A stretch of DNA of 63,660 nt, the filler included, from Stramenopiles sp. TOSAG23-6 (lineage: Eukaryota): NCBI GenBank assembly GCA_900128565.1. It is 42 parts of 42 records of this genome, joined end to end, with 100 filler letters (N's around TTAATTAATTAA, not from the genome) between each part and the next. Parts side by side here need not be neighbours in the genome. Positions count along the whole stretch, not along the records: positions 22,950 to 24,370 come from LT639070.1; 41 more parts are not named here. One strand, written 5' to 3'. A model generated the notes under the pieces. That model worked only from the letters and a program-made list of their open reading frames with translations, searched no databases and was not told where the DNA came from. The translations under genes and the position numbers were made by a program. Positions 13,627 through 63,660 of the stretch are shown piece after piece (position 1 is the stretch's first letter; the number at the start of each line of letters is the position of its first letter).

Positions 13627-13808
13627 GTATGTTTTATTTTTTTTTCAAATTTGATTTTTTTTTTATAAAAATTTTGTACCTAACGATTTTTTTTTGAAAT
13701 ATTTTTCCNNNNNNNNNNNNNNNNNNNNNNNNNNNNNNNNNNNNNNNNNNNNTTAATTAATTAANNNNNNNNNNNNNNNNNNNNNNNNNNNNNNNNNNNN
13801 NNNNNNNN

Positions 13809-20790: not shown

Positions 20791-21426
20791 NNNNNNNNNN
20801 NNNNNNNNNNNNNNNNNNNNNNNNNNNNNNNNNNNNNNNNNNNNNNNNNNNNNNNNNNNNNNNNNNNNNNNNNNNNNNNNNNNNNNNNNAAAAACGTACT
20901 ACAATTTTAGAACAAGAATCGTCATTAGGGTTAGGGTTTGGATCATCGAGATATGACGATTGTATTCACTCCGTAGTAGGTGATAACGTATCAGATGATT
21001 TTTCATTACCGGGTACTCCCACTTGTCGTACACCACATACAGAAAATAATATTGATACATCATTTTCAAGGGAGAGTCGTACTCAAGAAATTCGAAATTC
21101 ATTAGGTACGAATTTTGGTACAGAATCTCAAAATTCTATTTCAGATTTGCCAAATGACTCTTGTCTCTCTTTTTCGTCAGCACCAATTGATATTATACGT
21201 ATGAATCAACTAGGAAAAAATAGTACGGACGGAGAAATGTCGCCCAAGAGTTCAACTCAACAAGATACTCAATTTGAAAATTCTTTTTTCAAAAACAAAA
21301 AAATGAAGGTTTCCCAGGACCAAAAANNNNNNNNNNNNNNNNNNNNNNNNNNNNNNNNNNNNNNNNNNNNTTAATTAATTAANNNNNNNNNNNNNNNNNN
21401 NNNNNNNNNNNNNNNNNNNNNNNNNN

Positions 21427-22620: not shown

Positions 22621-23075
22621 GTCCAATTGTCTTTGAGTAATACTAATTCAAATTGGGTGAAACCAAACACAAAAGGAGGAGAGAAAAAGAGAGCAGAGAA
22701 AGCTTGATTGAGATAATTTCAATTTGCGAATTTTTTTTGATCAATTGAATTTTGATTTTCGAGCCCGGATTTTTTGACATTTAAAATATTTTTGATCCCT
22801 TGAATCTACCAAACGCATCGACATGTACATTAAAAATTTAATTACGAAANNNNNNNNNNNNNNNNNNNNNNNNNNNNNNNNNNNNNNNNNNNNTTAATTA
22901 ATTAANNNNNNNNNNNNNNNNNNNNNNNNNNNNNNNNNNNNNNNNNNNNTTTATTTTTATTTTTTAAACAAGAATTTTTTTTTTTTTTTTTTTTTTTTTG
23001 GTTTTCGTACGACATTTTGTACCTAAGCTAACAAAAATGTTGTACAATGTTTTGAAATATTTCTTCACAATGTAT

Positions 23076-24370
23076 ATTTAGCTGAATTTTCAGATGATGC
23101 AAAGGCAGTTGGTGTTGGGACAATTGGAGATCTTCCTGGTACAGAGGATAACCCTAACCCTAGTTTAACAAACTCTAACCCTAATCTAACAAACCCTAAC
23201 CCTAGAAACCCTAATCAAACAAAAAGTGTGGATAAAATGAATTCATTACCATCATCATCAATAGATACAAAAAAAAACCAAAAAAATCAAAAAAATCAAC
23301 TACATACAAATAATAATGCCACGTGTCAATGGCAAGGTGTCAATTATACATTTGATGGTCGATTTTCTGAATCATTAGCAGGAGGTCATGGTGATACGAT
23401 TGGTTGTTGTTGTTATTGTGGGAAAAAATATGGAATTCTATCGGAAAGTATAGTTTGTCGAGTTTGTCATGATCAAATTCTAATTTGTAAAGATTGTCAA
23501 AAACAATGTCACGAAAAAAATAATACAAAAATACAAATTCGAAATTCATCGTCAAATTCGTTGTCCACTGGCGATTGTGTTACACATGTGAATATGGTAC
23601 ATATGAAAAATACAAAACAAAAAAATCAAAAAAATCAAAAAAATCAAAAAAATCAAAAAAATCAAAAAAAACGAAAGTTAAATGACATTAGTAATCAAAT
23701 GCAATCAATACAAAAAACAATCGATACTCACCCTAACCCTAATCATACAATNTTTGATACAGCGAATGATGAAACGCTAACAGATGTAGAAAAATATACA
23801 AATGAAAATAAATTACGTATTCAAAAAAGAATAGAAATAGAAACATCATCTCCATTTTTATGTGCTGAACATGGATTGCTCAGTGACACGTGGCGTGATT
23901 ACATGTACGTTTTCATCATGAATTTATTAATTTATTTATTTTTTCGTACGAAATTTCGTACCTAACGATTTTTTTTTTTATAAAATTCGTGTTTTTTTTC
24001 ACAATACATGCAACAATTAACAACCAATGGGTTAACCCGTACAAAACTAAACACTTTACGAAATGAACTGTTATGTCAAATGAAAGCAAGTATTTTCCGA
24101 AAGAGGAGAAAATCACGTCCAGGACGACAAGGAAGGAAGAGGAAACGATCTCTGCAGATACAAATAAATCGAATTAGTGAATTTTTAGGTCTCAATTCAT
24201 TTGATTTTGAACATTTCTTGAAGAATCAAGGGAATGAAAAAACAACAAAACAAAAAAGAGAGGAGTTGTTACTACAATGTGAAAAACAATTTTCAAAAAT
24301 GATAACTTCAAATGGAGATGAAGAGAAAGAATGGAGTGGATTTTTTCCGTTGTTAAATTTGTTTTCATAA
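23076..24370 (+). CDS. Rhodanese-domain protein (TSTD2/TrhO-like), C-terminal part; intron 23905-24009 (GT-AT)
   Basis: YL.EF...WQGVNYTFDGRF...IG.C.YCG...C.VC...ILIC..C. Confidence 0.65.
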
Positions 24371-25889: not shown

Positions 25890-26059
25890 NNNNNNNNNNN
25901 NNNNNNNNNNNNNNNNNNNNNNNNNNNNNNNNNTTAATTAATTAANNNNNNNNNNNNNNNNNNNNNNNNNNNNNNNNNNNNNNNNNNNNAAAATTTTTTT
26001 CAAAAAAAAAAAAAAAAAAAAAAAAAATTTAAAAAAAAAAAAAAAAAAATAAAACATAC

Positions 26060-27355
26060 ATGTAATGTGCTTACTCCTAAATTTTGAAAAGGAATTATCA
26101 AATTTAAGAATTACAGTACCAGCCTCGGGGCACACAAACGCACCATATTGTTCATCTAGATGACACTGAACTCGCTCTGAGGGCATAAAGTGTACAACGT
26201 GTGAAGGCTGCGAAGTGACAATATTGTTGACTGAATTAGGTGAGTTATCTGAGATTGTATTCATTTGCTTTGGAGGTGTCATTGTAGTTGGACTGACTTT
26301 TTCTCTTTGAATCTCCTTATGGTTTTTGTAAGAGTTTTGAAGTTCTTGCCAATTTGTATTTGACTGAAACGTAGCACTGAAATTAATGTCATTTTTTGCT
26401 GAGAAAAAATTCCATGTAACTAGCTGACCAGGACAAAATATTGGAATTCTCACTTCATGACAACTACCACGGCTAACCCATAAAGTTTCGCCGCCTTTTT
26501 TTATACACTGATTTTGGGTTTCAGAACTTTCATTATCATCTATAATGTTATTACTTTCTATATCGCTTGTACAAGATTTAAAAGAACGAAAACTTGAAAT
26601 TCTATCAGTATCTTTTAAATCAATTGGTTCCATTCCATCTGCTATATTTACATTTATCGCGACTTCATCGTTATTATCGATTTGGTGTTGGGAATGCTTA
26701 GGGTTAGGGTTAGTCAGTTGAGTATCATCATTTTCTTTTTCTTCTTTTTGATCATTAGGGTTAGGGTTATCTTCTCTTTGCTTAATTTTCCAGCGTCTCC
26801 ACAAAAGTTCACTTTTAATACTATTAATTTGAACACTATTTGTAGTTTCGGATTTCCTGTTTCCACTTTTTTTGTCTTGATCTTTTTGAGAAGTCAAAGA
26901 TAATTTCCTGATTACAGATTCATCATGTATTTTGGAAAAATATTTCAAAAAAAATCTTAAAAAATTTGTTAGGTACAAATCCGAAAAACGAAATCCTTCT
27001 AATTTGCCTAATCCAATAGATGTTGTAACCGATGGCATGAGACTTTTCGGATATGAACCAAATAAAAGATCACAAGTATAAGTAACATTTTTACTACATT
27101 TTAACTCGCTTATATTTTTCCATTCCAAAATGACGTCACCAGCACAAGGGCTTATGAAAGCTCCATGCTGTTCATCACGATGAGAGTTAACTTTTTGGAG
27201 ATTTCGGATTATTTTTGTCTCATTGTTCTGAGCTTTACTGCGGAATTGTGCGCCAAAATGAATAAATGTTTTTGTAGAAACAAAGTGCCATATAATCAAC
27301 TGACCAGGATAATTGACTGAAATTTTGGTATATTTTGAAGAGTTGGAAGCAATCC
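26060..27355 (-). CDS. Protein with two GOLD-like domains, partial
   Basis: GQL..W.F......I.F...F...G.F..P.AG.V.L...N occurs twice; the second copy ends FDNSFSKFRSK. Confidence 0.7.
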
Positions 27356-27539
27356 ATGTATTTTGGAAAAATATTTCAAAAAAAAATCGTTAGGTACAAA
27401 ATTTCGTNNNNNNNNNNNNNNNNNNNNNNNNNNNNNNNNNNNNNNNNNNNNTTAATTAATTAANNNNNNNNNNNNNNNNNNNNNNNNNNNNNNNNNNNNN
27501 NNNNNNNAAATATAATAAAATCCATGATTGATGAAAACA

Positions 27540-28812
27540 AACATTTGTTGTAATTCAGATTCTCTTCCAAAAAACGAAAGTGGCGCAGGACAATCGTTGA
27601 CCATCCGATTATTTTCTGTATGATTTATATATTGTTGGAAAAAATAGTAGAAAAAAAAAATCATTAAGTACAAAATTTCAATACAAAAATCATCAAGTAC
27701 AAAATTTTCTATGAAATGATGATTATATACATGTGAGTTCCAGAAGACACAGAACCACGGGAAAAAATAACTTTCGAATGTCTTTTATCATTTTCAGATT
27801 TGTATTTTGGAAAATATTTCAAAAAAAAATCGTTAGGTACAAAATTTCGTACGAAAAATAAATTCAAATTTGAAAAAAAATAAAACATACTTTTTTGATG
27901 GTAAAAGTAAAAATTTTGTTTCTTCTCCCTTCCCTTTAGTAACAGGGCTTAGCTCTATCATAGATTTTCCAATATCAACTGCTTCCTCAACTGTTTTACC
28001 AGCTAAAAGTGAACAATAAAAGTTAGTTGCAAAGATGTATTGTGAAAAATATTTCAAATTTGTTTTTTGTTTAGGTACAAAATTACGTATGAAAAAATAA
28101 ATTCGAAATTCATGATGAAAAGGTACATTATAGATGCATCGTCTAGGACCACCTTGCTATCTTGAATAGCAATGACATGAGGAACACCACATTCTACAAA
28201 AGCATGACCAATTCTTTCGGAATGGCAAACACTAACAAGAACGACTTTCACTCCACGGTGAGTACCCCCAGATCGAAAGAGTCGTTTTATCTCAGTACTC
28301 GTAATCACTTGAGCAATTCCTCGATCATCTTCAAGTAAAAGTTCTCCACCACTCAATCCATGACCTGAAAAATGTACAATTTTGCAGCCTTGTGTAAGCG
28401 TACGTTTAATATTATCTAGAGTGCCAAACTCTGATTTCCAATGGACTTGGTGTTGAATACGATCAAAAATTTGGGTGAGTCCATTTAACTCTCTTGCAAT
28501 ATCGAGTTGTTGAACGCTGATAAGTTTTGAACTATCATCGCCCATTTTGACTTTCATCAATGGAGAAGCAAAAAAATGACCGATATGATATTGATGTTGA
28601 CTTGGTACACGCTGAGATATTTCACTTTTGAAACTATTAGCTACTTCAGACGTTAACTCTGATGGAAATTCTTTACTATCAGATTCTGCGCTTCGACTTT
28701 TATGAGCTCGCCACAAGCTTTGCAACAAGCGAGTAGCACTATCCATGTCATCATTATCTTGAATGTCTTGAACATTCAACGTTTCAGATGCTTTAGGTAT
28801 AGATGAATTCAT
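27540..28812 (-). CDS. IQ motif + CHAT (caspase-like) domain followed by the start of a probable STAND/NB-ARC NTPase; introns 28035-28126 (GT-AT), 27800-27890 (GT-AA) and a third starting at 27730
   Basis: AT.LLQSLWRAH..R; FASPL, LD..RE, VHFSGHG, LLLED, SVCHSE, GVPHVI, D.AS|IIF...FY..L..G.TV.EA; FFGRESEL. Confidence 0.75.
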
Positions 28813-31504: not shown

Positions 31505-32128
31505 TAGATTAAATAATATTTTCTAAAACGTATTATTGTGCATTATATAAATAGGACTTGATAGAGAGAGGTTGACTGCTGTGTAATAATTTAATTATGT
31601 GAATGTGATTGACTGTCAAAAGTGATTGGATTGAAACTTCACGATACACGAAATCATGAAAAAACAGTTTTTTTTTCATAGGAAATTTCGTACCTAACGT
31701 GTTTTCATGATTTTTATTATAAGAAACGCCCGATTTATTTCGTGTTTTTTCCGCGAAATCATGGAAATACGTTAGGTACAAAATTTACTACGGAAACTTA
31801 TTAAAACTTCATGACAAAAAAAAAATTGTGAAGTTTCCAATCAGTCAAGAGTCTAGAGTCAAGACTGTCAAAATCCGAAAAGAAAACGAAAAAGCGATTG
31901 CGAAGACTTTGGAAAAATCTGGAAATTAAAAATTCGTCATAAAAAATTGCCAAANNNNNNNNNNNNNNNNNNNNNNNNNNNNNNNNNNNNNNNNNNNNTT
32001 AATTAATTAANNNNNNNNNNNNNNNNNNNNNNNNNNNNNNNNNNNNNNNNNNNNAACGAACTCTCTCTCGATACACACGAGTTATTAAACAAGAACGTGA
32101 TAAAGTTTACAAAAAAATACATAAGGGG

Positions 32129-32822: not shown

Positions 32823-33812
32823 AAAGATGAAAAATCATTTTCNNNNNNNNNNNNNNNNNNNNNNNNNNNNNNNNNNNNNNNNNNNNNNNNNNNNNNNNNN
32901 NNNNNNNNNNNNNNNNNNNNNNNNNNNNNNNNNNNNNNNNNNNNNNNNNNNNNNNNNNNNNNNNNNNNNNNNNNNNNNNNNNNNNNNNNNNNNNNNNNNN
33001 NNNNNCCCTAACCCTAATTCAAACTTGATTTTTTTTTTTTCATACGATTTCAAAATTTTTAAAAATTTTGTGCAAAAACATCCAAAAAAAAAAAAAAAAG
33101 TTAAATCATTTTTTTCAAGACTTGTACAACATTATCATAATGATGATATAATTTATTGTCAATGTTTTTATGAAAGCCCTAACCCTAGCTAATATTTTTT
33201 GAATTTGATATTTTTTTTAAATGACAGGGTCACTTACCCTAACCCTAATTCAAACTTGATTTTTTTTTTTTCATACGATTTCAAAATTTTTAAAAATTTT
33301 GTGCAAAAACATCCAAAAAAAAAAAAAAAAGTTAAATCATTTTTTTCAAGACTTGTACAACATTATCATAATGATGATATAATTTATTGTCAATGTTTTT
33401 ATGAAAGCCCTAACCCTAGCTAATATTTTTTGAATTTGATATTTTTTTTAAATGACAGGGTCACTTACNNNNNNNNNNNNNNNNNNNNNNNNNNNNNNNN
33501 NNNNNNNNNNNNTTAATTAATTAANNNNNNNNNNNNNNNNNNNNNNNNNNNNNNNNNNNNNNNNNNNNAAAAAAACAACTGACTCTTCTGAACAGGTTTG
33601 CGCAAAAATATGATGGGTTTCATACAAAATTTTGTACCTAAAAAAACTCTTCCAGAAATGAGAAAAACGACACAACACGTGGTGTGTGAAAATTCCAGTC
33701 TATACTACAATAGTACTAACAATCACACGACAACTACTTACTATATATAGTAAAACACGACGGGGTTAAAGTTATTTCTCCATTGTATTACACGCCATAT
33801 TTATTTATAAGA

Positions 33813-34505
33813 ATGCTATCTAGAGTTTTGAAAATTCAACAAGCATCACCACTAGTGGCCCGTGCTTTTTGTAATAGATTGAACAGTACTTCCGTACACG
33901 ATGCGGATGCAACACGGGTTGACACTCAGCGTCAAATTATACAACAAAAGTCTGCATTCAAAGAGGCTGCAAGAGCACTTAGATCACAATATATGCGTGA
34001 AATTGATTCACGTGAGAAGACAATTCAAATATTAGAAAGAGAGGTTGAGGTACGTAAAGAAAAAGAGAGAAAAGATCTGATCAAATTGAAACGGACTCGT
34101 GCAGAAGCCAATGTAAAGGCGAGAACTCTTGAGGAAAAAAAACGTATTGCTGAGACCGCTGCGAAACGCCAATCGAATGCNGAAGAAGCNAANAAATGGG
34201 CTGATCATGTATGTAAACGTCGAAATGACAGATTCGAATTTTTAGCCAATGAGGAAAAGTATTGGCTTGANGGTAGTCAACTAAATCCTAATCATGAAGA
34301 AGAATCAGAAAACATTATCAAAAAATATTGTGAAGATGCTTTCTCCAAACGTGTTCCGTGGGATACATGGATTCAAGAAATTAATACACGAAATCAACAC
34401 CGTGCNACGGCNGTNAAAACAAAACATATGCCTAAACCAAAATTTGAAAAACGTAATTTCTTGATTGAACATGAACGTCAAAAAGGTNTTTNGAGTACAA
34501 TCTAG
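33813..34505 (+). CDS. Coiled-coil protein with a mitochondrial-presequence-like N-terminus; duplicated at 35326-36018
   Basis: MLSRVLK..ARAF N-terminus followed by a charged helical body. Confidence 0.55.
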   Translation: MLSRVLKIQQASPLVARAFCNRLNSTSVHDADATRVDTQRQIIQQKSAFKEAARALRSQYMREIDSREKTIQILEREVEVRKEKERKDLIKLKRTRAEANVKARTLEEKKRIAETAAKRQSNXEEXXKWADHVCKRRNDRFEFLANEEKYWLXGSQLNPNHEEESENIIKKYCEDAFSKRVPWDTWIQEINTRNQHRXTXXKTKHMPKPKFEKRNFLIEHERQKGXXSTI

Positions 34506-36733
34506 TTGTTTTTTTTCGTACGAAATTTTGTACCTAACAAACGAAAATTGGAAAATTGGATTTTTGAAACATTATTATTACAAATGTAGTAAGAAATCAT
34601 TTTCCTTACATTTTTTTTAAACATTTTCTTGTGTATTTATGTATATAATAAANGTNATGTATGATACTATCTATTTAGATGATATTTTGTTGATATATGT
34701 ATGTATAATGCAATGAAAAATTAAATNTAATGTTTTTAATTTTATTTTTTTTTTGTATGAAATTTTCTTAGTAAAAAAAAAGGAAAAATTATTTATTTTC
34801 AACTGATTTCACTTTCTTGATTCAAATATTTTTGATCTTCACATTAANAATTCATGATGGAGACTTAATTCTTTTTCAGTAAGCATATATATTTATGGTA
34901 TGTATTGANTCTTTATTTTTTNAAATCATTTAGGTTTACTTTTGTTTTTGTATATTATTATGATTCATTATTTGAGCCAATNNNNNNNNNNNNNNNNNNN
35001 NNNNNNNNNNNNNNNNNNNNNNNNNTTAATTAATTAANNNNNNNNNNNNNNNNNNNNNNNNNNNNNNNNNNNNNNNNNNNNAAAAAAACAACTGACTCTT
35101 CTGAACAGGTTTGCGCAAAAATATGATGGGTTTCATACAAAATTTTGTACCTAAAAAAACTCTTCCAGAAATGAGAAAAACGACACAACACGTGGTGTGT
35201 GAAAATTCCAGTCTATACTACAATAGTACTAACAATCACACGACAACTACTTACTATATATAGTAAAACACGACGGGGTTAAAGTTATTTCTCCATTGTA
35301 TTACACGCCATATTTATTTATAAGAATGCTATCTAGAGTTTTGAAAATTCAACAAGCATCACCACTAGTGGCCCGTGCTTTTTGTAATAGATTGAACAGT
35401 ACTTCCGTACACGATGCGGATGCAACACGGGTTGACACTCAGCGTCAAATTATACAACAAAAGTCTGCATTCAAAGAGGCTGCAAGAGCACTTAGATCAC
35501 AATATATGCGTGAAATTGATTCACGTGAGAAGACAATTCAAATATTAGAAAGAGAGGTTGAGGTACGTAAAGAAAAAGAGAGAAAAGATCTGATCAAATT
35601 GAAACGGACTCGTGCAGAAGCCAATGTAAAGGCGAGAACTCTTGAGGAAAAAAAACGTATTGCTGAGACCGCTGCGAAACGCCAATCGAATGCNGAAGAA
35701 GCNAANAAATGGGCTGATCATGTATGTAAACGTCGAAATGACAGATTCGAATTTTTAGCCAATGAGGAAAAGTATTGGCTTGANGGTAGTCAACTAAATC
35801 CTAATCATGAAGAAGAATCAGAAAACATTATCAAAAAATATTGTGAAGATGCTTTCTCCAAACGTGTTCCGTGGGATACATGGATTCAAGAAATTAATAC
35901 ACGAAATCAACACCGTGCNACGGCNGTNAAAACAAAACATATGCCTAAACCAAAATTTGAAAAACGTAATTTCTTGATTGAACATGAACGTCAAAAAGGT
36001 CTTTTGAGTACAATCTAGTTGTTTTTTTTCGTACGAAATTTTGTACCTAACAAACGAAAATTGGAAAATTGGATTTTTGAAACATTATTATTACAAATGT
36101 AGTAAGAAATCATTTTCCTTACATTTTTTTTAAACATTTTCTTGTGTATTTATGTATATAATAAANGTNATGTATGATACTATCTATTTAGATGATATTT
36201 TGTTGATATATGTATGTATAATGCAATGAAAAATTAAATGTAATGTTTTTAATTTTATTTTTTTTTTGTATGAAATTTTCTTAGTAAAAAAAAAGGAAAA
36301 ATTATTTATTTTCAACTGATTTCACTTTCTTGATTCAAATATTTTTGATCTTCACATTAAGAATTCATGATGGAGACTTAATTCTTTTTCAGTAAGCATA
36401 TATATTTATGGTATGTATTGANTCTTTATTTTTTNAAATCATTTAGGTTTACTTTTGTTTTTGTATATTATTATGATTCATTATTTGAGCCAATNNNNNN
36501 NNNNNNNNNNNNNNNNNNNNNNNNNNNNNNNNNNNNNNTTAATTAATTAANNNNNNNNNNNNNNNNNNNNNNNNNNNNNNNNNNNNNNNNNNNNTTTTTT
36601 TTTTTTTTGAATTTTATTTTAAAATTTATTTTTTTTGTAAATTTTATTTTAATTTTATTTTATTTTTTTTTTTTTTTCTCATACAAAATTTCCTAACAAA
36701 TTCAAACTTTTAAACATATTGTTGTACAATACA

Positions 36734-39660: not shown

Positions 39661-40786
39661 ATGCCCACTAATTCTATCATCTATCTTACAATACTCATGA
39701 TGTTTTCTAAGTAATGCTTTGCTTTCCCAACTTTCACCACATACATCACAATACGTACTTACACGCATTCCACAATCAGCATCATCAGCTCTTTGTAAAC
39801 CATATGGAAATTTGTATGAACTCATTGCTGGAGCTATATGTATTTTGGAAAAATATTTGAAATTTTGTTTGTTAGGTACGAAATTTCGTACGAAAAAAAC
39901 AAATCGATTTTTTTGTAAAAAAAAAAAAATAAAACATACATCTAATTCATTTGTTTGTTTCATGTATTCAGATGCAGCAGATGCTGCTTTATCAACATCA
40001 AGTCTTCTATCACGCATGATTTGTTTTACTCTATATTGTTGTGCCCACCAAAGAGGAGGTATAAAAGGTGACCATGCATCAAGTCTATGTACAACTACTG
40101 ATGGTAAGGCTAGAAAAATAAAACCACCTGTTTCATCACTTGGATGTTGAAGGCGTAAAATATGTGATTGAAAATGTGTTGTACGACCATATTTATCCGT
40201 ATAATCACGAACACCATAACATCGAACATGCCCTTCAACTAATTGATGATGTCTCATTTCAGCGACCTGCACGAGATATTTTAGTATACGCAACACCAAT
40301 TGTAAGAGATGATAATAATACACTCACCATAAATTCTGTAAATATGAGAGCACTTGCTCTTGTACAGTTATTGAAGAAAGGATCTCTTGCGCCATAGCCA
40401 ATTGTTGTCAGCGTAATTAAAGAAAAAACAAAGGCATCGTTAAAAGTGCTAATTCCAGCCTCACATTCATTATCTAGAGACCACCAAAATAAAGAAAAAA
40501 CTATATTGACTACGAAATAGACACAAAATACTATAGCAATAATACTTGAAGCACGCTTTGCTAAAAGACTATGGAACCAATCACTCACATACAAATGGTA
40601 CGATAACCTACTCTTTTTTATGTGAAGTCGACCTCTTGATTGATGAAAGTAACTACGTCTATCACAGATACGAAATGGTAAATCGTCAATAGCAGGTGCA
40701 ACACTCACCCGAGATCGATCTTCATCTCTACTTGTAGTAGGATTTACCATTTTTAAACCATTTCTTTCCGAACCTTTTGCTTCCAT
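39661..40786 (-). CDS. Inward-rectifier K+ channel (Kir), partial; frame break at ~40262; intron 39838-39939 (GT-AT)
   Basis: F.FSL.TLTTIGYG selectivity filter, KISR, HQLVEGHVR, LP..VVH.LD..SP; C2H2-like insert (CDVCGE...H..YC). Confidence 0.88.
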
Positions 40787-53210: not shown

Positions 53211-54619
53211 ATGTTTTTTGGGGTAGTGCCATAGACTGACATTATCACTAAGACCAGTTCTATCATTCGGAATACGCCGGCGTCTCCCTGTTCTAAACGA
53301 TATCAAATCCTTATTTTTATTCCTCATTGAATAATTACTCGGCTTACTTTTACAATACATTGAGTTTTCTTCTTTTTTGGAAGCTTTTATTTGTAACGAA
53401 ATATTGGAATGTTTTGGTAATTTAATGCGCAAAGATGTGATTGGCCGACGGTCAAATTTTCTATTTATATCTGAATCACATCTATTGTAATGTAATGCAC
53501 TATGTAATCGTTTTGAATGTTTTGTATACTCAGTATGTGGTCTTCTGTCATTCACTGATTGTTCTAAAATCAGATTTGTACGATTCATACAGGTCCTTGG
53601 TCGATTTTTTCCTGCCCAATATCCATCCGCTGCTTTTCCATATACACCAAAATCATGTGGCTTATTTGATATAATACTGGATTCATTGGTGTCATCTATA
53701 CACTCATCTATTCTACTGCTAATGTCAAGATCTAATTGTAAATCGCCTAATTTCCCTGAAACACCTTTTAATTTTCTACGTTCATCACGTATTGCGAAAA
53801 AATATTGCAAAAAAAAATCGTTAGGTACAAAATTTCGTACGAAAAAAAACTACATTCGAAATTGAAATTGAAAAAAACGTACACGTTCCCTCATTTTAGC
53901 CTTCCATTGAAGGACTTTTTTTCTACGTTTTTTTAGTTTTATGATAAGGTTCTGTTTTGCATCAGCTCTCTCTTCAAGATACTTTTCATTCTCCATTTGT
54001 GCTACTTGCTTCGCTGGTGTACATGTATTTTGGAAAAAAAATTCAAATGTTTTTTCGTTAGGTACAAAATTTCGTACGAAACAAAAATCGAATTTGAAAA
54101 AAAGTAAAACATACATTCCCGTTTTGGCTTCATCAAACCCATAGCAATGAGCTTCTCTTCCCTCTTTCTTTTTATTTCATCTGCAACTTTATTTTCTTCA
54201 ATTGTCTGAATCGCTTTCATTAAAACTGAATTACTATTTTTTATGATTGCTGCTGTTTTTGTTTCATTATTATTTTTTTTTTTCATACTTTTTATATTTG
54301 CTTTTATTACCCCCGCCCGCATTCGACGGCCCTTCAAATTACTATACAAACACTCAGGATCTTCAAGCTTCCGTTTGTTCTCTTCTTCTTCTATACGTTT
54401 GATGTGAGCCCTTTCAGCTGCAATTTTCAACTGCTCTTTATAAGTCAAACCTGAAGTATCGTGTGATAGTAAAACAATCATGCGAAGGTAACCTAGAGGA
54501 TAATTTCCAGGTTTTATTGCCATAAGAGCCTCTTCCTTTTCAGCTAGTAACTTGGCCTCCTTCTCCATTAGCTCAGCCTCGACACGTTCTTGTTCTTTCG
54601 CTTTTTCAGCATCTATTTG
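53211..54619 (-). CDS. Uncharacterised coiled-coil protein, partial; includes intron 53787-53882 (GT...GT)
   Basis: Three exons join in frame using family boundaries. Confidence 0.55.
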
Positions 54620-54719: not shown

Positions 54720-56128
54720 TTTCAAAATGTCCTGGTATAATTTTAGTTTTTTTACCTGGGAAGACACGCGAGCTAGTATATCTCGTGCATGAAATTTATC
54801 ATCATTGCACTCTTTCGGTGCTGTTCCACTTTGCAAGTTGGAAATATATTCTTTCAGACGGCACTCACACATATTTAGGACTGGAATTGAAACAGTTACA
54901 GGCCATTCTTTAGCTGCTTTTAGAGCCATTTCAATAGGTTTCTGGATTCCTTGCATCCTAATAAAATTTTGTATATTGCAATCCATGTTTCTGCCTGGTT
55001 GGAAAGAAAAATTTTGAACCATGTCATTCGGCAAATCAATGGAGGTAATGTTGCGTCACAAAGATCAATTGCTGCTTCCAGTTTTCCGCAATTTACAAGG
55101 TTTTGAACGATTCCTTTGTAAATAATACACATCTGAGTGTCGTTCTCGACAAGAACATGATCGATACATTGTTGCTGTACCACTGTCAATTTTGTATATT
55201 TTTCCCATCCGTATACTTGCGTTGACCATTTTTTAAAGTGTTTGAAATTATAAGAGATGAAATGAGATACGGCGTCGGTATACTGGTCATTTTTATTGTT
55301 TCCGTCAATGTTTTGGTTGTCATTATTTGTATCAAAGGTAGGAAAACACATAATGGATTGCTTGTGCTTTAATACATATCCATCTATGCAGTGTTGTGTG
55401 TGCAATAGACTGTTCTAATGCGTACCAAATAAAACGTCCATCTAATGCATTATGGGACTGTCTTAGTACACAGCAAAGTGGTGCCAAAAACAATCCATTT
55501 ATAGGAGATGAACTATTACGAGTGTCATCTAGAGCACTCTGGCTAAATAGATAATCTCTTTCAAGGTCAGCAATAAATCGAACGACTTCTAGATTCAATC
55601 GATAGTGTCGATATTCTTCAGAATTTTTCCTGTATATCTTCGGTGACGCAACAGAATGAGACGATGCTTTTCGACTAAATTCATTTACTATTGTAGATCT
55701 CAACGACAATTTCAAAAGATCTATCCCCATTAACTTGGACAGAGCTCGTGCTTCCACTATTCCGTGATTTTCAAATATTACTCTGGCAAGGATGGAGCAG
55801 GGTGAATGTTCGAGTACTGATAAGTTGTGTGAATCAACTCCACAGGAACGAAGAAGAGATCTAACCTCTACAATGTATTGTAAAAACTGCAACAAGTAAT
55901 GCATAGTCCCGTTCGATGATTTAATACATTGTTTATGTACTCCATATTCGGGGTTTTCTTCTTGTGAACTAGTATGTGGCTCTATATCATCTGCCGAAAA
56001 TGTTTTCATCACAGATTCCATAAATGTGTCAAGATATGTGTCCGAGGGCTTACCTTGACGACCTCGCTTTAATAATGAAAACACCTGACTAAGAGCCCCA
56101 AGAGCTTGCATCTTTGACTTTTTACGCG
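54720..56128 (-). CDS. Possible spastizin/ZFYVE26-like protein, internal part, with two frame breaks
   Basis: AL.....WP......VL..C and V...L.LYQ.IL resemble spastizin; three overlapping ORFs. Confidence 0.45.
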
Positions 56129-62069: not shown

Positions 62070-62414
62070 GTATGTTTTATTTTTTTTTTACAGAAAAATC
62101 GATTTTTTTTTTCGTACGAAATTTTGTACCTAACAAATTTTAGTTTTTTTTTTTNNNNNNNNNNNNNNNNNNNNNNNNNNNNNNNNNNNNNNNNNNNNTT
62201 AATTAATTAANNNNNNNNNNNNNNNNNNNNNNNNNNNNNNNNNNNNNNNNNNNNAAAAATATAAAAAAAATGTAAAAAAAATATTTAAAAAAAAATGTAA
62301 AAAAAAAAAATGTAAAAAAAAAATATAAAAAAAAATATAAAAAAAATATAAAAAAAAATATAAAAAAAATATAAAAAAAATATAAAAAAAAAATGTAGGG
62401 TTAGGGTTACGTAC

Positions 62415-63660
62415 TATATTGTGTCCGTAGTAAAGAAACACTCACTGAATCCTTTGGTAAAAATACTTTTGTATTATGTTTTGTACTACTTTTTGTATCT
62501 ACCAAAGTATGTTCTAAATGATGTCTTGCCAAACGTTCAAATAAACTGATTTTTAGTGGATGAGGAGAATTGTTAGGGTTAGGGTTTTGTGAATGAGGCA
62601 AACTATTACATCCAAACTCATCTTGTTTTGTATTTGTTGTATTTGTTGAATTTGTTGTATTTGTTATATTTTCATCATCATTTATATAATGTACATTTTT
62701 TTCTGATAAAACTGTAGGTGGTAATTGGCAATGGTCTCCTGCCAAGACTAGTAAACCATTATTACTTAATCTACAAATAGGAACAAGGGCTTCTGGTTCT
62801 TGACATTGAGACGCTTCATCTAATAATACAAGTATTGTGAAAAAATATTTCAAAAAAAAAACGTTAGGTACGAAATTTCGTATGAAAACAAAATTAAATT
62901 ATAAATTCATGTAAAACATACAAGATCAAATTCAAGATTTTTTAATGTTGCACTTCCACTACTAGCACAGGTGCAACACAACACACGAGCATCACCAAGA
63001 ATATCTCGCATTGCATGATTACGTATAGCATTATGAAATTTTGAACTTTCTTGTGCTTCTCTTGTTGCATGTTTAACATTTTGTCTTGTCTGAGGATCAG
63101 AAGAAATTAAATTTGTTTCTACAGCATATCGAAGTTCCGATAATGAATTTTCTTTTAATTGTTGAGCAGCATTCCAACCATTATCTTTTGAATCACTCAA
63201 TCGTGATTCCATTGATAAAGACAACAAATTTTGTCTAATTTTTGATTCATGACCAAGACGAATAGCAGGAACGTCAAGTTGTTGAAGTTGAGATAAAAGA
63301 GCATCTACACCGACATTTGATGGTGCTGTGACTAATGCCATTCCTGTATTAGGATTTCCACTAGAATCTGGACGATCTAACCACTCTTTAACAAGATGTG
63401 CAATTGAAAATGTTTTACCTGTACCAGGTGGACCTTGAATTAAGCTAAGTTTTTGACCTGGTGCGAGTGCTGTTTCAATACTTTCTCTTTGACTTTTGTT
63501 TAATCTTTTTTCATTGTTTGTTTTTTCGTTTTGACTTTTGTTTAATGTTTTTTCATTGATTGTTTTGTTTATTTTGTTTATTTTGTTTTTTTTGTTATTA
63601 CTACTATTATTTTGTAGTAATAAACTTCGTTCCATTGGATTATTTTGTAGTAATAAACTT
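62415..63660 (-). CDS. Duplicate of the SF1 helicase fragment at 1-1439, one 33-nt repeat shorter
   Basis: Same sequence at offset 62254. Confidence 0.9.

Follow-up and report, generated by a model that had tools for sequence, protein, structure and literature searches.

The window, by which we mean the whole 63,660-nucleotide (nt) stretch of DNA from Stramenopiles sp. TOSAG23-6 (GenBank assembly GCA_900128565.1), is made up of pieces of ~1.4 kb in falling size order, counted as 53 in the analysis, and its runs of N contain a TTAATTAATTAA linker. The non-N sequence comes to ~59 kb, and the GC content of the window is ~30%. The genes in it are eukaryotic, with a RecQ-type helicase, an alpha-tubulin acetyltransferase, an ABCB-type transporter, and a Kir-type channel identified by a Pfam scan, as well as U-box, FYVE, CW, and MA3 domains in further open reading frames (ORFs). 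Our subject is a 25-nt motif, TTTCGTACGAAATTTCGTACCTAAC, at positions 23942 to 23966 of the plus strand, in the piece taken from LT639070.1. It forms the internal core of a family of introns of 91 to 192 nt that lack a 3' AG, and it is probably the central module of an introner resembling a miniature inverted-repeat transposable element (MITE), which would be spliced out with its own signals and carry a 2-nt target duplication. The features of the intron around this copy, and of two further family introns, are as follows.

23903..23904 (+): exon bases AT before the intron, a putative copy of the target-site duplication; the same dinucleotide closes the intron.
23905..24009 (+): complete 105-nt family intron (GTACGT ... 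CACAATAC followed by AT), whose excision joins ..WRDYM to QQLTTNG.. in frame.
23905..23925 (+): 5' module, GTACGT followed by TTTCATCATGAATTT, of the subfamily with CATCATGAA (from the alignment of 13 seed introns).
23942..23966 (+): the motif, or module B.
23942..23953 (+): palindrome 1, TTTCGTACGAAA, with two CpG sites that decay in other copies.
23946..23961 (+): palindrome 2, GTACGAAATTTCGTAC, with a predicted 6-bp stem and 4-nt loop.
23959..23966 (+): TACCTAAC, putative branch-site box (from conservation and the 44 nt to the end), with the putative branch A at 23965.
23969..23999 (+): T-rich tract, with T runs at 23969 to 23979 and 23992 to 23999 (from a comparison of the tails of 20 introns).
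24000..24007 (+): 3' terminal block CACAATAC; ..A(T/A)AC or a close variant immediately precedes the final two bases in all 20 curated introns.
24008..24009 (+): last intron bases AT, without AG, identical to 23903 to 23904 (from the boundary analysis).
52645..52749 (+): the same intron in a duplicated contig.
12726..12816 (+): family intron in the RecQ-type helicase gene, with flank TT versus last bases CG (from the boundary analysis).

The motif is far more abundant in the window than chance allows. With up to three mismatches, 43 matches were found on the two strands, compared with a mean of 0.00 in 100 dinucleotide-preserving shuffles, none of which reached 43. Up to four mismatches gave 54 matches, some of them in duplicated contigs, and four matches are exact (2419+, 23942+, 39871 to 39895 on the minus strand, and 52682+, the last in a duplicated contig); the usual form across copies carries TTTTGTAC. 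At least five pairs of pieces are present twice in the window, so that some of the 43 matches are duplicates:

1 to 1439 = 62255 to 63660
4617 to 6052 = 6153 to 7588
22950 to 24370 = 51702 to 53110
33569 to 34981 = 35082 to 36494
48684 to 50092 = 50193 to 51601

Our literature searches found no description of the motif as a splicing signal (of 388 hits, the 20 listed concern primers and similar sequences), and an earlier description may nevertheless exist.

The intron family has three modules. The first opens with GTAYGTTTT at the 5' end, followed by ATTTTTTTTCAATTTCGAATTT-like or CATCATGAATTT-like sequence; the motif forms the core; and the third is a T-rich stretch, often with GAAATATTTT, that ends in ..C(A/C)AA(T/A)AC plus two bases. 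A whole-intron profile, built from a seed alignment of 13 complete units, gave 75 nhmmer hits at E ≤ 0.01 in the ~59 kb of non-N sequence, or about one copy per kb, and contig ends often fall inside a family unit. Twenty curated complete introns with similar sequences lie at unrelated positions in different genes, and several family introns are near-identical to one another. When the intron at 23905 to 24009 is removed, the joined frame stays open for 50 codons on its shorter side, compared with at most 21 codons when the ends are shifted by 1 or 2 nt. Two tandem motif copies with a spacer occur in the introns at 45132+, 46353+, 61483+, and 15033−, the last copy lying at the usual distance from the 3' end. 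On the minus strand at 26926 to 26997, a family copy without the GTAYGT module lies in a frame that is open throughout (ORF 25938 to 27389); this copy may be 5' truncated or exonized.

To define the boundaries, the 3' end was fixed at AC plus two bases by the profile alignment alone and the 5' end at GT. Among 23 distinct complete units, four were dropped (one because a contig ends in its upstream exon, one because its flank contains N, and two because the script picked a wrong 5' site), leaving 19 well-defined introns. The joined ORF was longest with these ends, compared with ends shifted by 1 or 2 nt, in 17 of the 19, one of the 17 being marginal; in the remaining two, the AC-plus-two end ties with or is worse than the shifted ends. 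Since phase alone cannot exclude shifts of three bases, two junctions were checked by homology. At intron 667−, the Pfam AAA_11 profile is matched from 2 to 217 in the upstream exon and from 216 to 257 in the downstream exon. At intron 41483−, the first residue of the downstream exon falls on residue 106 of the ABCB10 chain 3zdq_A (E = 7.8e-10), and the alignment of the upstream exon stops at residue 103, exactly two residues short of the exon's end, in a match that is weak (E = 0.78) and collinear. Just 3 of 20 intron tails contain any AG, and using the one in 3627− shifts the frame and leads to a stop after 11 codons. The missing 3' AG reported in the initial annotation is thus borne out by boundary, tail, and homology evidence alike.

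All curated introns begin with GT. The last two bases, tabulated for 22 introns, are AT in 17 and TT, AA, GT, CG, and AG once each, which is not the canonical GT-AG pattern. The two-base 5' exon flank equals the last two bases of the intron in 17 of the 19 well-defined introns and in 18 of 22 once 61483+, 14482−, and 1741+ are included. The non-AT flank and end pairs covary (TT/TT at 667−, AA/AA at 27890−, and GT/GT at 53882−), which argues for a duplication rather than a consensus. Because of this two-base repeat, a GT..NN cut and an NN..AC cut are indistinguishable from DNA, with the textbook GTAYGT favoring GT..NN. Flank and end differ in four introns (12726 to 12816 and 1741 to 1930 on the plus strand, 43204 to 43093 and 14482 to 14373 on the minus strand), three of which end in AT or AG while the exon flank varies. 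The helicase intron at 12726+, in which the flank (TT) differs from the end (CG), can in principle reveal the cut used; at this junction, the residue before a conserved D is variable in 120 relatives, so that C and G are not separable by homology. As judged from reading frames and flanking sequence, the boundaries of the family restore the frame without an AG and are marked by a two-base duplication. For RNA, three metatranscriptome runs and one DNA run were compared, as assembled contigs, with positions 12283 to 13708. Poly-A RNA contigs fall on exon parts only (12434 to 12585, 13038 to 13206, and 13149 to 13351), and no RNA contig bridges an intron in this interval; that the poly-A runs leave its two complete introns uncovered is not evidence of their removal.

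Conservation within the motif is asymmetric. To avoid circularity, it was assessed in 25 distinct introns that had been picked up solely through their 5' module (GTAYGTTTT, with at least 90 N-free bases). CTAAC is present in 21 of these and GTACCTAAC in 18; the four copies lacking CTAAC are one with CTAAT instead, one cut by N, one that is probably no intron, and one with only ..AACTAAA.. left. The left GTAC of the motif is intact in 10 of 25 introns versus 19 of 25 for the identical right GTAC (Fisher P = 0.02), and the palindromes are perfect in 8 (palindrome 1) and 2 (palindrome 2) of the 25. The least-kept positions are the three CpG sites of the motif. Changes cluster at these sites (motif positions 4-5, 8-9, and 16-17), where CG has become TG or CA, and this suggests CpG hypermutability of the copies, perhaps through methylation of the elements. 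In four copies with seven to nine mismatches, the left half now consists of A/T runs and TT(T)GTACCTAAC is retained, and decayed copies retain only TTGTACCTAAC of the motif. Among the 20 curated complete introns, TTTGTACCTAAC is the best kept of five 12-mers compared, being found with at most one mismatch in 18, followed by TTTCGTACGAAA in 14, TGAAATATTTTT in 11, CATCATGAATTT in 4, and AATTTCGAATTT in 3. The expectation that the blocks stay conserved while spacers decay therefore holds for the 3' half, which persists in decayed copies, and not for the palindromes, which are mostly imperfect.

The distance to the 3' end is similarly constrained. In all 20 curated introns, 32 to 44 nt (median, 36 nt) separate the second A of CTAAC from the final base, which is within the roughly 30 to 50 nt given in the initial annotation; in the present copy, the distance is 44 nt. 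This distance also holds in introns of 153 to 192 nt and, for the last motif copy, in three two-motif introns. The T runs lie 3' of the CTAAC box, and the tails are T-rich. On these grounds, a U2-type branch site is the most likely identity of the 3' half of the motif, with CTAAC as its canonical core and the second A as the putative branch point, and only the last dozen bases of the motif appear to be kept by selection. TACCTAAC does indeed match neither the textbook U2 box nor the textbook U12 box exactly. The earlier idea of an extended branch element has indirect support for the 3' part, which behaves like a branch site in its conservation, its position, and its survival in decayed copies, but not for the palindromic part. 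As CTAAC is already an ordinary U2-type core, no variant small nuclear RNA (snRNA) or dedicated protein is required. However, the kept block is longer than usual and has an extra C relative to TACTAAC, so that a co-evolved U2 or an extended protein footprint is possible, and the additional conserved TTGTAC upstream of the core is not accounted for by an ordinary CTAAC. An Rfam search of the window for snRNAs gave no match at the gathering thresholds and no U2 at E ≤ 1 either. The only match at E ≤ 1, a weak U6atac-like one at 24090 to 24216 (+) with its duplicate at 52830 to 52956, spans the full length of the model and lies inside a purine-rich coding exon or ORF; at 21.6 bits versus a cutoff of 33 (E = 0.37), it was taken as chance.

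The two overlapping palindromes, TTTCGTACGAAA (23942 to 23953) and GTACGAAATTTCGTAC (23946 to 23961), are both perfect in this copy when read directly from the sequence, as originally described. A hairpin alignment was made from 52 distinct copies with at most five mismatches overall and at most one in ACCTAA, a selection that biases its right end. No pair in either palindrome was altered on both sides, that is, there was no compensatory change in the 52-copy alignment. Pairing averaged 83.7% for palindrome 2 and 89.0% for palindrome 1, compared with shuffle means of 84.6% and 90.0%, respectively, and the G-C pairs are broken in 11 to 19 of 50 rows, nearly always through a change in the left arm. 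The predicted stem has −6.5 kcal/mol in the present copy (z = −2.45) and −4.4 kcal/mol in the common TTTTGTAC form, and old copies have none. The whole intron folds at −13.9 kcal/mol (z = −2.71), with its two ends unpaired in the minimum-free-energy structure. The palindromes are not maintained, and a role of the hairpin or palindrome as a functional element finds no backing in covariation, in pairing, or in the weak predicted stem. It is likewise unlikely that the motif defines the 3' end in place of AG, as had been proposed, since its distance varies by 12 nt and the separate ..AATAC block is fixed at the very end, which argues against the motif as the ruler for that end. A second near-palindrome, GAAATATTT, described near the 3' end, is exact in 7 of 20 introns and present with at most one mismatch in 16 of 20, and is missing from the present copy. 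Pairing between the intron ends was also considered as a ruler for the 3' end and was rejected, as no covariation was apparent by eye in the tails.

The family is not confined to introns. The motif copies that lie elsewhere include the following.

31674..31698 (+): non-intronic motif copy, forming an inverted pair with the next (inverted repeat of 41 nt, 85% complementary).
31771..31795 (−): the other member of this pair; both lie in a palindromic stretch that precedes a gene start.
21101..21125 (−): antisense motif copy in a plus-strand ORF, where it is read as ..IRNSLGTNFGT...
46810..46834 (−): antisense motif copy in a plus-strand ORF, where it is read as ..IRNPLGTKFGT...

Each copy of the inverted pair is followed by 5'-module-like sequence. 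The palindromic stretch around the pair (31623 to 31847) contains inverted 5' modules and inverted ATTGG/CCAAT-containing arms in addition to the motif, and it may be a divergent promoter or may consist of two element copies in intergenic DNA. Further motif copies lie just upstream and downstream of one gene (33618 and 34514). The two antisense copies share flanking GATTTCGAATTT and the reading IRN(S/P)LGT(K/N)FGT, and look like exonized element copies. The absence of AG, the two-base duplication, and the intergenic and antisense copies together lead us to read the family as a MITE-like introner. The terminal complementarity, by reading, amounts to GTAT..ATAC only (4 nt, or 6 nt with the AT flanks), and a Pfam scan of 86 window ORFs found no transposase.

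Outside the window, a metagenome scan recovered one motif-bearing contig, L001, which holds a further family intron with an AT duplication. No motif was found in the prokaryote genome contigs scanned, and 35 viral contigs matching a 16-mer were put down to chance, none of them carrying the longer motif. In a seawater DNA run, the summed contig depth, which is not a copy number, is ~7 over exons and 1,200 to 59,000 over family segments, a contrast that hints at a very large family. No intron-skipping joint was seen among the 15 joints listed, of 63 in total, for this run (12283 to 13708).

Taken together, we consider it likely that many genes of an AT-rich marine eukaryote have received insertions of a short (~90- to 190-nt) MITE-like element, and that transcripts would lose the element as an intron, making it an introner. 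The element would begin directly with a U1-type 5' splice site (GTAYGT) and would also supply a box for the branch site (TTGTACCTAAC, with its CTAAC core, in the 3' half of the motif), the T runs, and the terminal block ..AATAC. Two bases of the target, usually AT, would be duplicated on insertion. The reading frame is restored when the element and one of the duplicates are cut out exactly, and the intron would thus read GT...AT, or equivalently NN...AC, without AG. The palindromes of the 5' half would be a legacy of the element, decaying mostly at CpG sites and not needed for splicing. The sequence data show the repeat family itself, its frame-restoring boundaries without AG, the duplication at these boundaries, the asymmetric conservation, and the constrained distance; we infer the removal by the spliceosome, the role of the A in CTAAC as branch point, and the spread by transposition.

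Several points weigh against this interpretation. Its basis is DNA, reading frames, and protein homology rather than an RNA junction or lariat. The canonical U2 box pairs with TACTAAC, and TACCTAAC has one extra C; the conserved block, at 11 nt or more, is also longer than the usual branch box, and it may be subject to a further interaction in addition to simple U2 pairing. Many of the copies are young and grouped in subfamilies, so that they do not count as independent events and owe some of their similarity to common ancestry. The 5' half of the motif, too, shows reasonable conservation, with no more than one mismatch in 14 of 20 introns. The inverted repeats at the termini are short (GTAT..ATAC with the AT flanks), and neither a transposase partner nor an empty site nor a presence/absence polymorphism was seen in the data examined. 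Finally, the model does not explain how a 3' site without AG and with variable ends (AT, TT, AA, GT, CG, or AG) is chosen.

The same observations bear on other explanations. That the whole palindromic 25-mer serves a variant U2 (with a GUAGGUA-type pairing region) or a dedicated protein as an extended branch element or hairpin and defines the 3' end would accommodate the mismatch of TACCTAAC with both textbook boxes, a conserved block of at least 11 nt that exceeds the needs of canonical U2 pairing, the absent AG, and the predicted folding of the CpG-intact copy into a small stem ending just before CCTAAC (−6.5 kcal/mol; z = −2.45). We nevertheless regard it as unlikely, given that compensatory changes are absent and pairing is no higher than in shuffles, that palindrome 2 is perfect in just 2 of 25 copies, that decayed copies without any left arm still lie in open genes, that the motif is a poor ruler at 32 to 44 nt from an end always adjoined by ..AATAC, and that CTAAC is already an ordinary U2-type core. 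We are as doubtful of a version in which the unit carries a self-sufficient splicing code, consisting of the canonical 5' site, a long branch region UUGUACCUAAC that is read by a co-evolved U2 or a protein with an extended footprint, and the terminal block. In this version, the spliceosome would cut two bases beyond ..AAUAC regardless of their identity, and the element end together with the target-site duplication would position the 3' splice site, without AG.

Somewhat more doubtful still is the possibility that the motif has no role in splicing and has been kept either because the copies are recent or because the element uses it as DNA, for example to bind a transposase or in a promoter-like role. 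The copies outside introns (the inverted pair, 33618 and 34514, and those antisense in ORFs), the near-identity of several introns, and the palindromic form, as often found in protein-binding sites, would all suit such a role. However, dead copies should lose a site that serves only the element, and yet the copies with seven to nine mismatches keep TT(T)GTACCTAAC with the palindrome gone; moreover, the right GTAC outlasts an identical left one, and the distance to the 3' end is held even in the 153- to 192-nt and two-motif introns. Removal without the spliceosome, either as DNA excision like that of ciliate internal eliminated sequences or guided by structure as in euglenids, using the 2-nt repeats and GTAT..ATAC, seems very improbable. 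Such removal would agree with the 2-nt direct repeats at both borders, one copy of which is retained, with the short complementary ends, and with the lack of AG, but U1-type GTAYGT, CTAAC at branch distance, and T runs make up a full set of spliceosomal signals. In addition, position 4 of the 5' site (C/T) does not covary by eye with the 3' block, environmental DNA contigs hold the introns joined to exons, and the whole-intron fold is modest, with its ends unpaired.

The MITE-like introner that we favor can be compared with several known systems. Yeast-type introns have strict splicing signals, GTATGT and TACTAAC. The family resembles them in its near-invariant GTAYGT, its long near-invariant box ending in CTAAC, and a similar distance from branch to 3' end, and differs in the extra C of TACCTAAC, in conservation that reaches further upstream (TTG), and in the lack of YAG at the 3' end. 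U12-type introns have the 5' site RTATCCTT and the box TCCTTAAC at ~10 to 26 nt from the 3' end; their box is likewise long and highly conserved and ends in TAAC, whereas the family has GTAYGT as its 5' site and a box of different sequence, TACCTAAC, at 32 to 44 nt.

Introners, i.e., MITE-like transposons that create introns, have been described in Micromonas pusilla, Aureococcus anophagefferens, and dinoflagellates (PMC11282704, PMC9860276, PMC12130899), and the gain of a second splice site through duplication is already known among them (PMC11282704). They share with the present family near-identical short introns at unrelated positions, border duplications, an element-borne splice site, and a marine host. 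Introners of M. pusilla obtain their 3' AG by co-opting a 3-nt duplication (PMC11282704), whereas the duplication here is of 2 nt, mostly AT, and provides no AG; the present family also carries a strict branch box, and its inverted repeats are just 4 to 6 nt.

In Fritillaria, AT is the commonest 3' end (44% in F. pellucida and 34% in F. borealis; PMC13326754), and the non-AG introns are of MITE origin with duplications and inverted repeats (PMC13326754, PMC11282704), features that the present family resembles along with the U-rich tract. The last intron triplet is pyrimidine-A-pyrimidine in Fritillaria (PMC13326754) and mostly CAT here, with AT in 17 of 22 introns preceded by C/T. F. borealis introns mostly start with AG, and the family, with its textbook GTAYGT, does not have such a non-GT 5' end. 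The accessible parts of these sources report no conserved branch box for Fritillaria (PMC13326754, PMC11282704), whereas the present family has one. Further, Fritillaria is a larvacean tunicate, and the host here is probably not a tunicate, judging from its KirBac-like channel; its acetyltransferase does not look tunicate-like either.

Amoebophrya, a marine protist with transposon-like spread of its introns like that proposed here, has repeated noncanonical introns with direct repeats of 3 to 5 nt across the borders (PMC7789003). Its intron ends pair through inverted repeats of 8 to 20 nt, without conserved terminal dinucleotides, and U1 was not found there (PMC7789003), whereas the present family has a canonical 5' site and ends that barely pair. 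The nonconventional introns of euglenids and diplonemids are similar in their non-AG borders, the short direct repeats there, and a suspected MITE origin (PMC6221363, PMC12621601). They have no U1-complementary 5' end, no pyrimidine tract, and a stable end-to-end helix, and the present family is the opposite on all three counts. Relative to these systems, the family differs in its combination of a canonical GT, a strict branch box, and a non-AG 3' end dictated by a duplication.

Seawater metagenomes contain DNA near-identical to that of the window (word share up to 0.56). The RecQ exon has top identities of ~54 to 58%, equally to stramenopiles, plants, and fish; the top named match of the alpha-tubulin acetyltransferase is a Paramecium protein (47%); and the Kir-type channel is nearer to bacterial KirBac (E = 3e-08) than to animal Kir (E = 2.5e-05). 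A foraminiferan, diplonemid, or larvacean host, each considered at first, found no support. At 10701 to 12230 (+), an ORF of ~475 residues is made of ~70-residue repeats (..RVKDKFKLFGRQIVLHNAQDKATNEPEGA..), and this repeat protein (10755 to 12179) had no relative at E ≤ 1e-5 among 8000 scored candidates. At 40259 to 40323 and 55332 to 55414, adjacent ORFs of one gene overlap in different frames without an intron signal; these overlaps are probably single-base sequencing errors in homopolymer runs. Telomere-like AACCCTAACCCTAA (at most one mismatch) has 44 matches in the window, compared with 0.01 expected, e.g., at 23150 to 23205, 23729 to 23742, 46598 to 46629, and 47467 to 47486, and occurs in L001 at ~1760 to 1830 as well. 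Many of these copies lie within ORFs, where they are translated as NPNP, and others lie within introns; in L001, an inverted CCCTAA/TTAGGG pair comes after a stop codon.

A practical consequence is that gene finders assuming GT-AG introns will fail on this genome, and the sole stored gene model examined runs straight into the intron. If our interpretation is correct, the genome would be a natural experiment in a transposon turning itself into an intron, and the host spliceosome would have to cope with a 3' end that is set by the 2-nt duplication of the target instead of AG. The series of decaying copies separates the needs of the element from those of splicing, the palindromes being lost while GTAYGT, TTGTACCTAAC, and ..AATAC are kept. 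The family would then add a case with a canonical GT to the few lineages that splice non-AG introns at scale (Fritillaria, Amoebophrya, and euglenozoans), and the choice of a 3' site without AG would become testable in simple minigenes.

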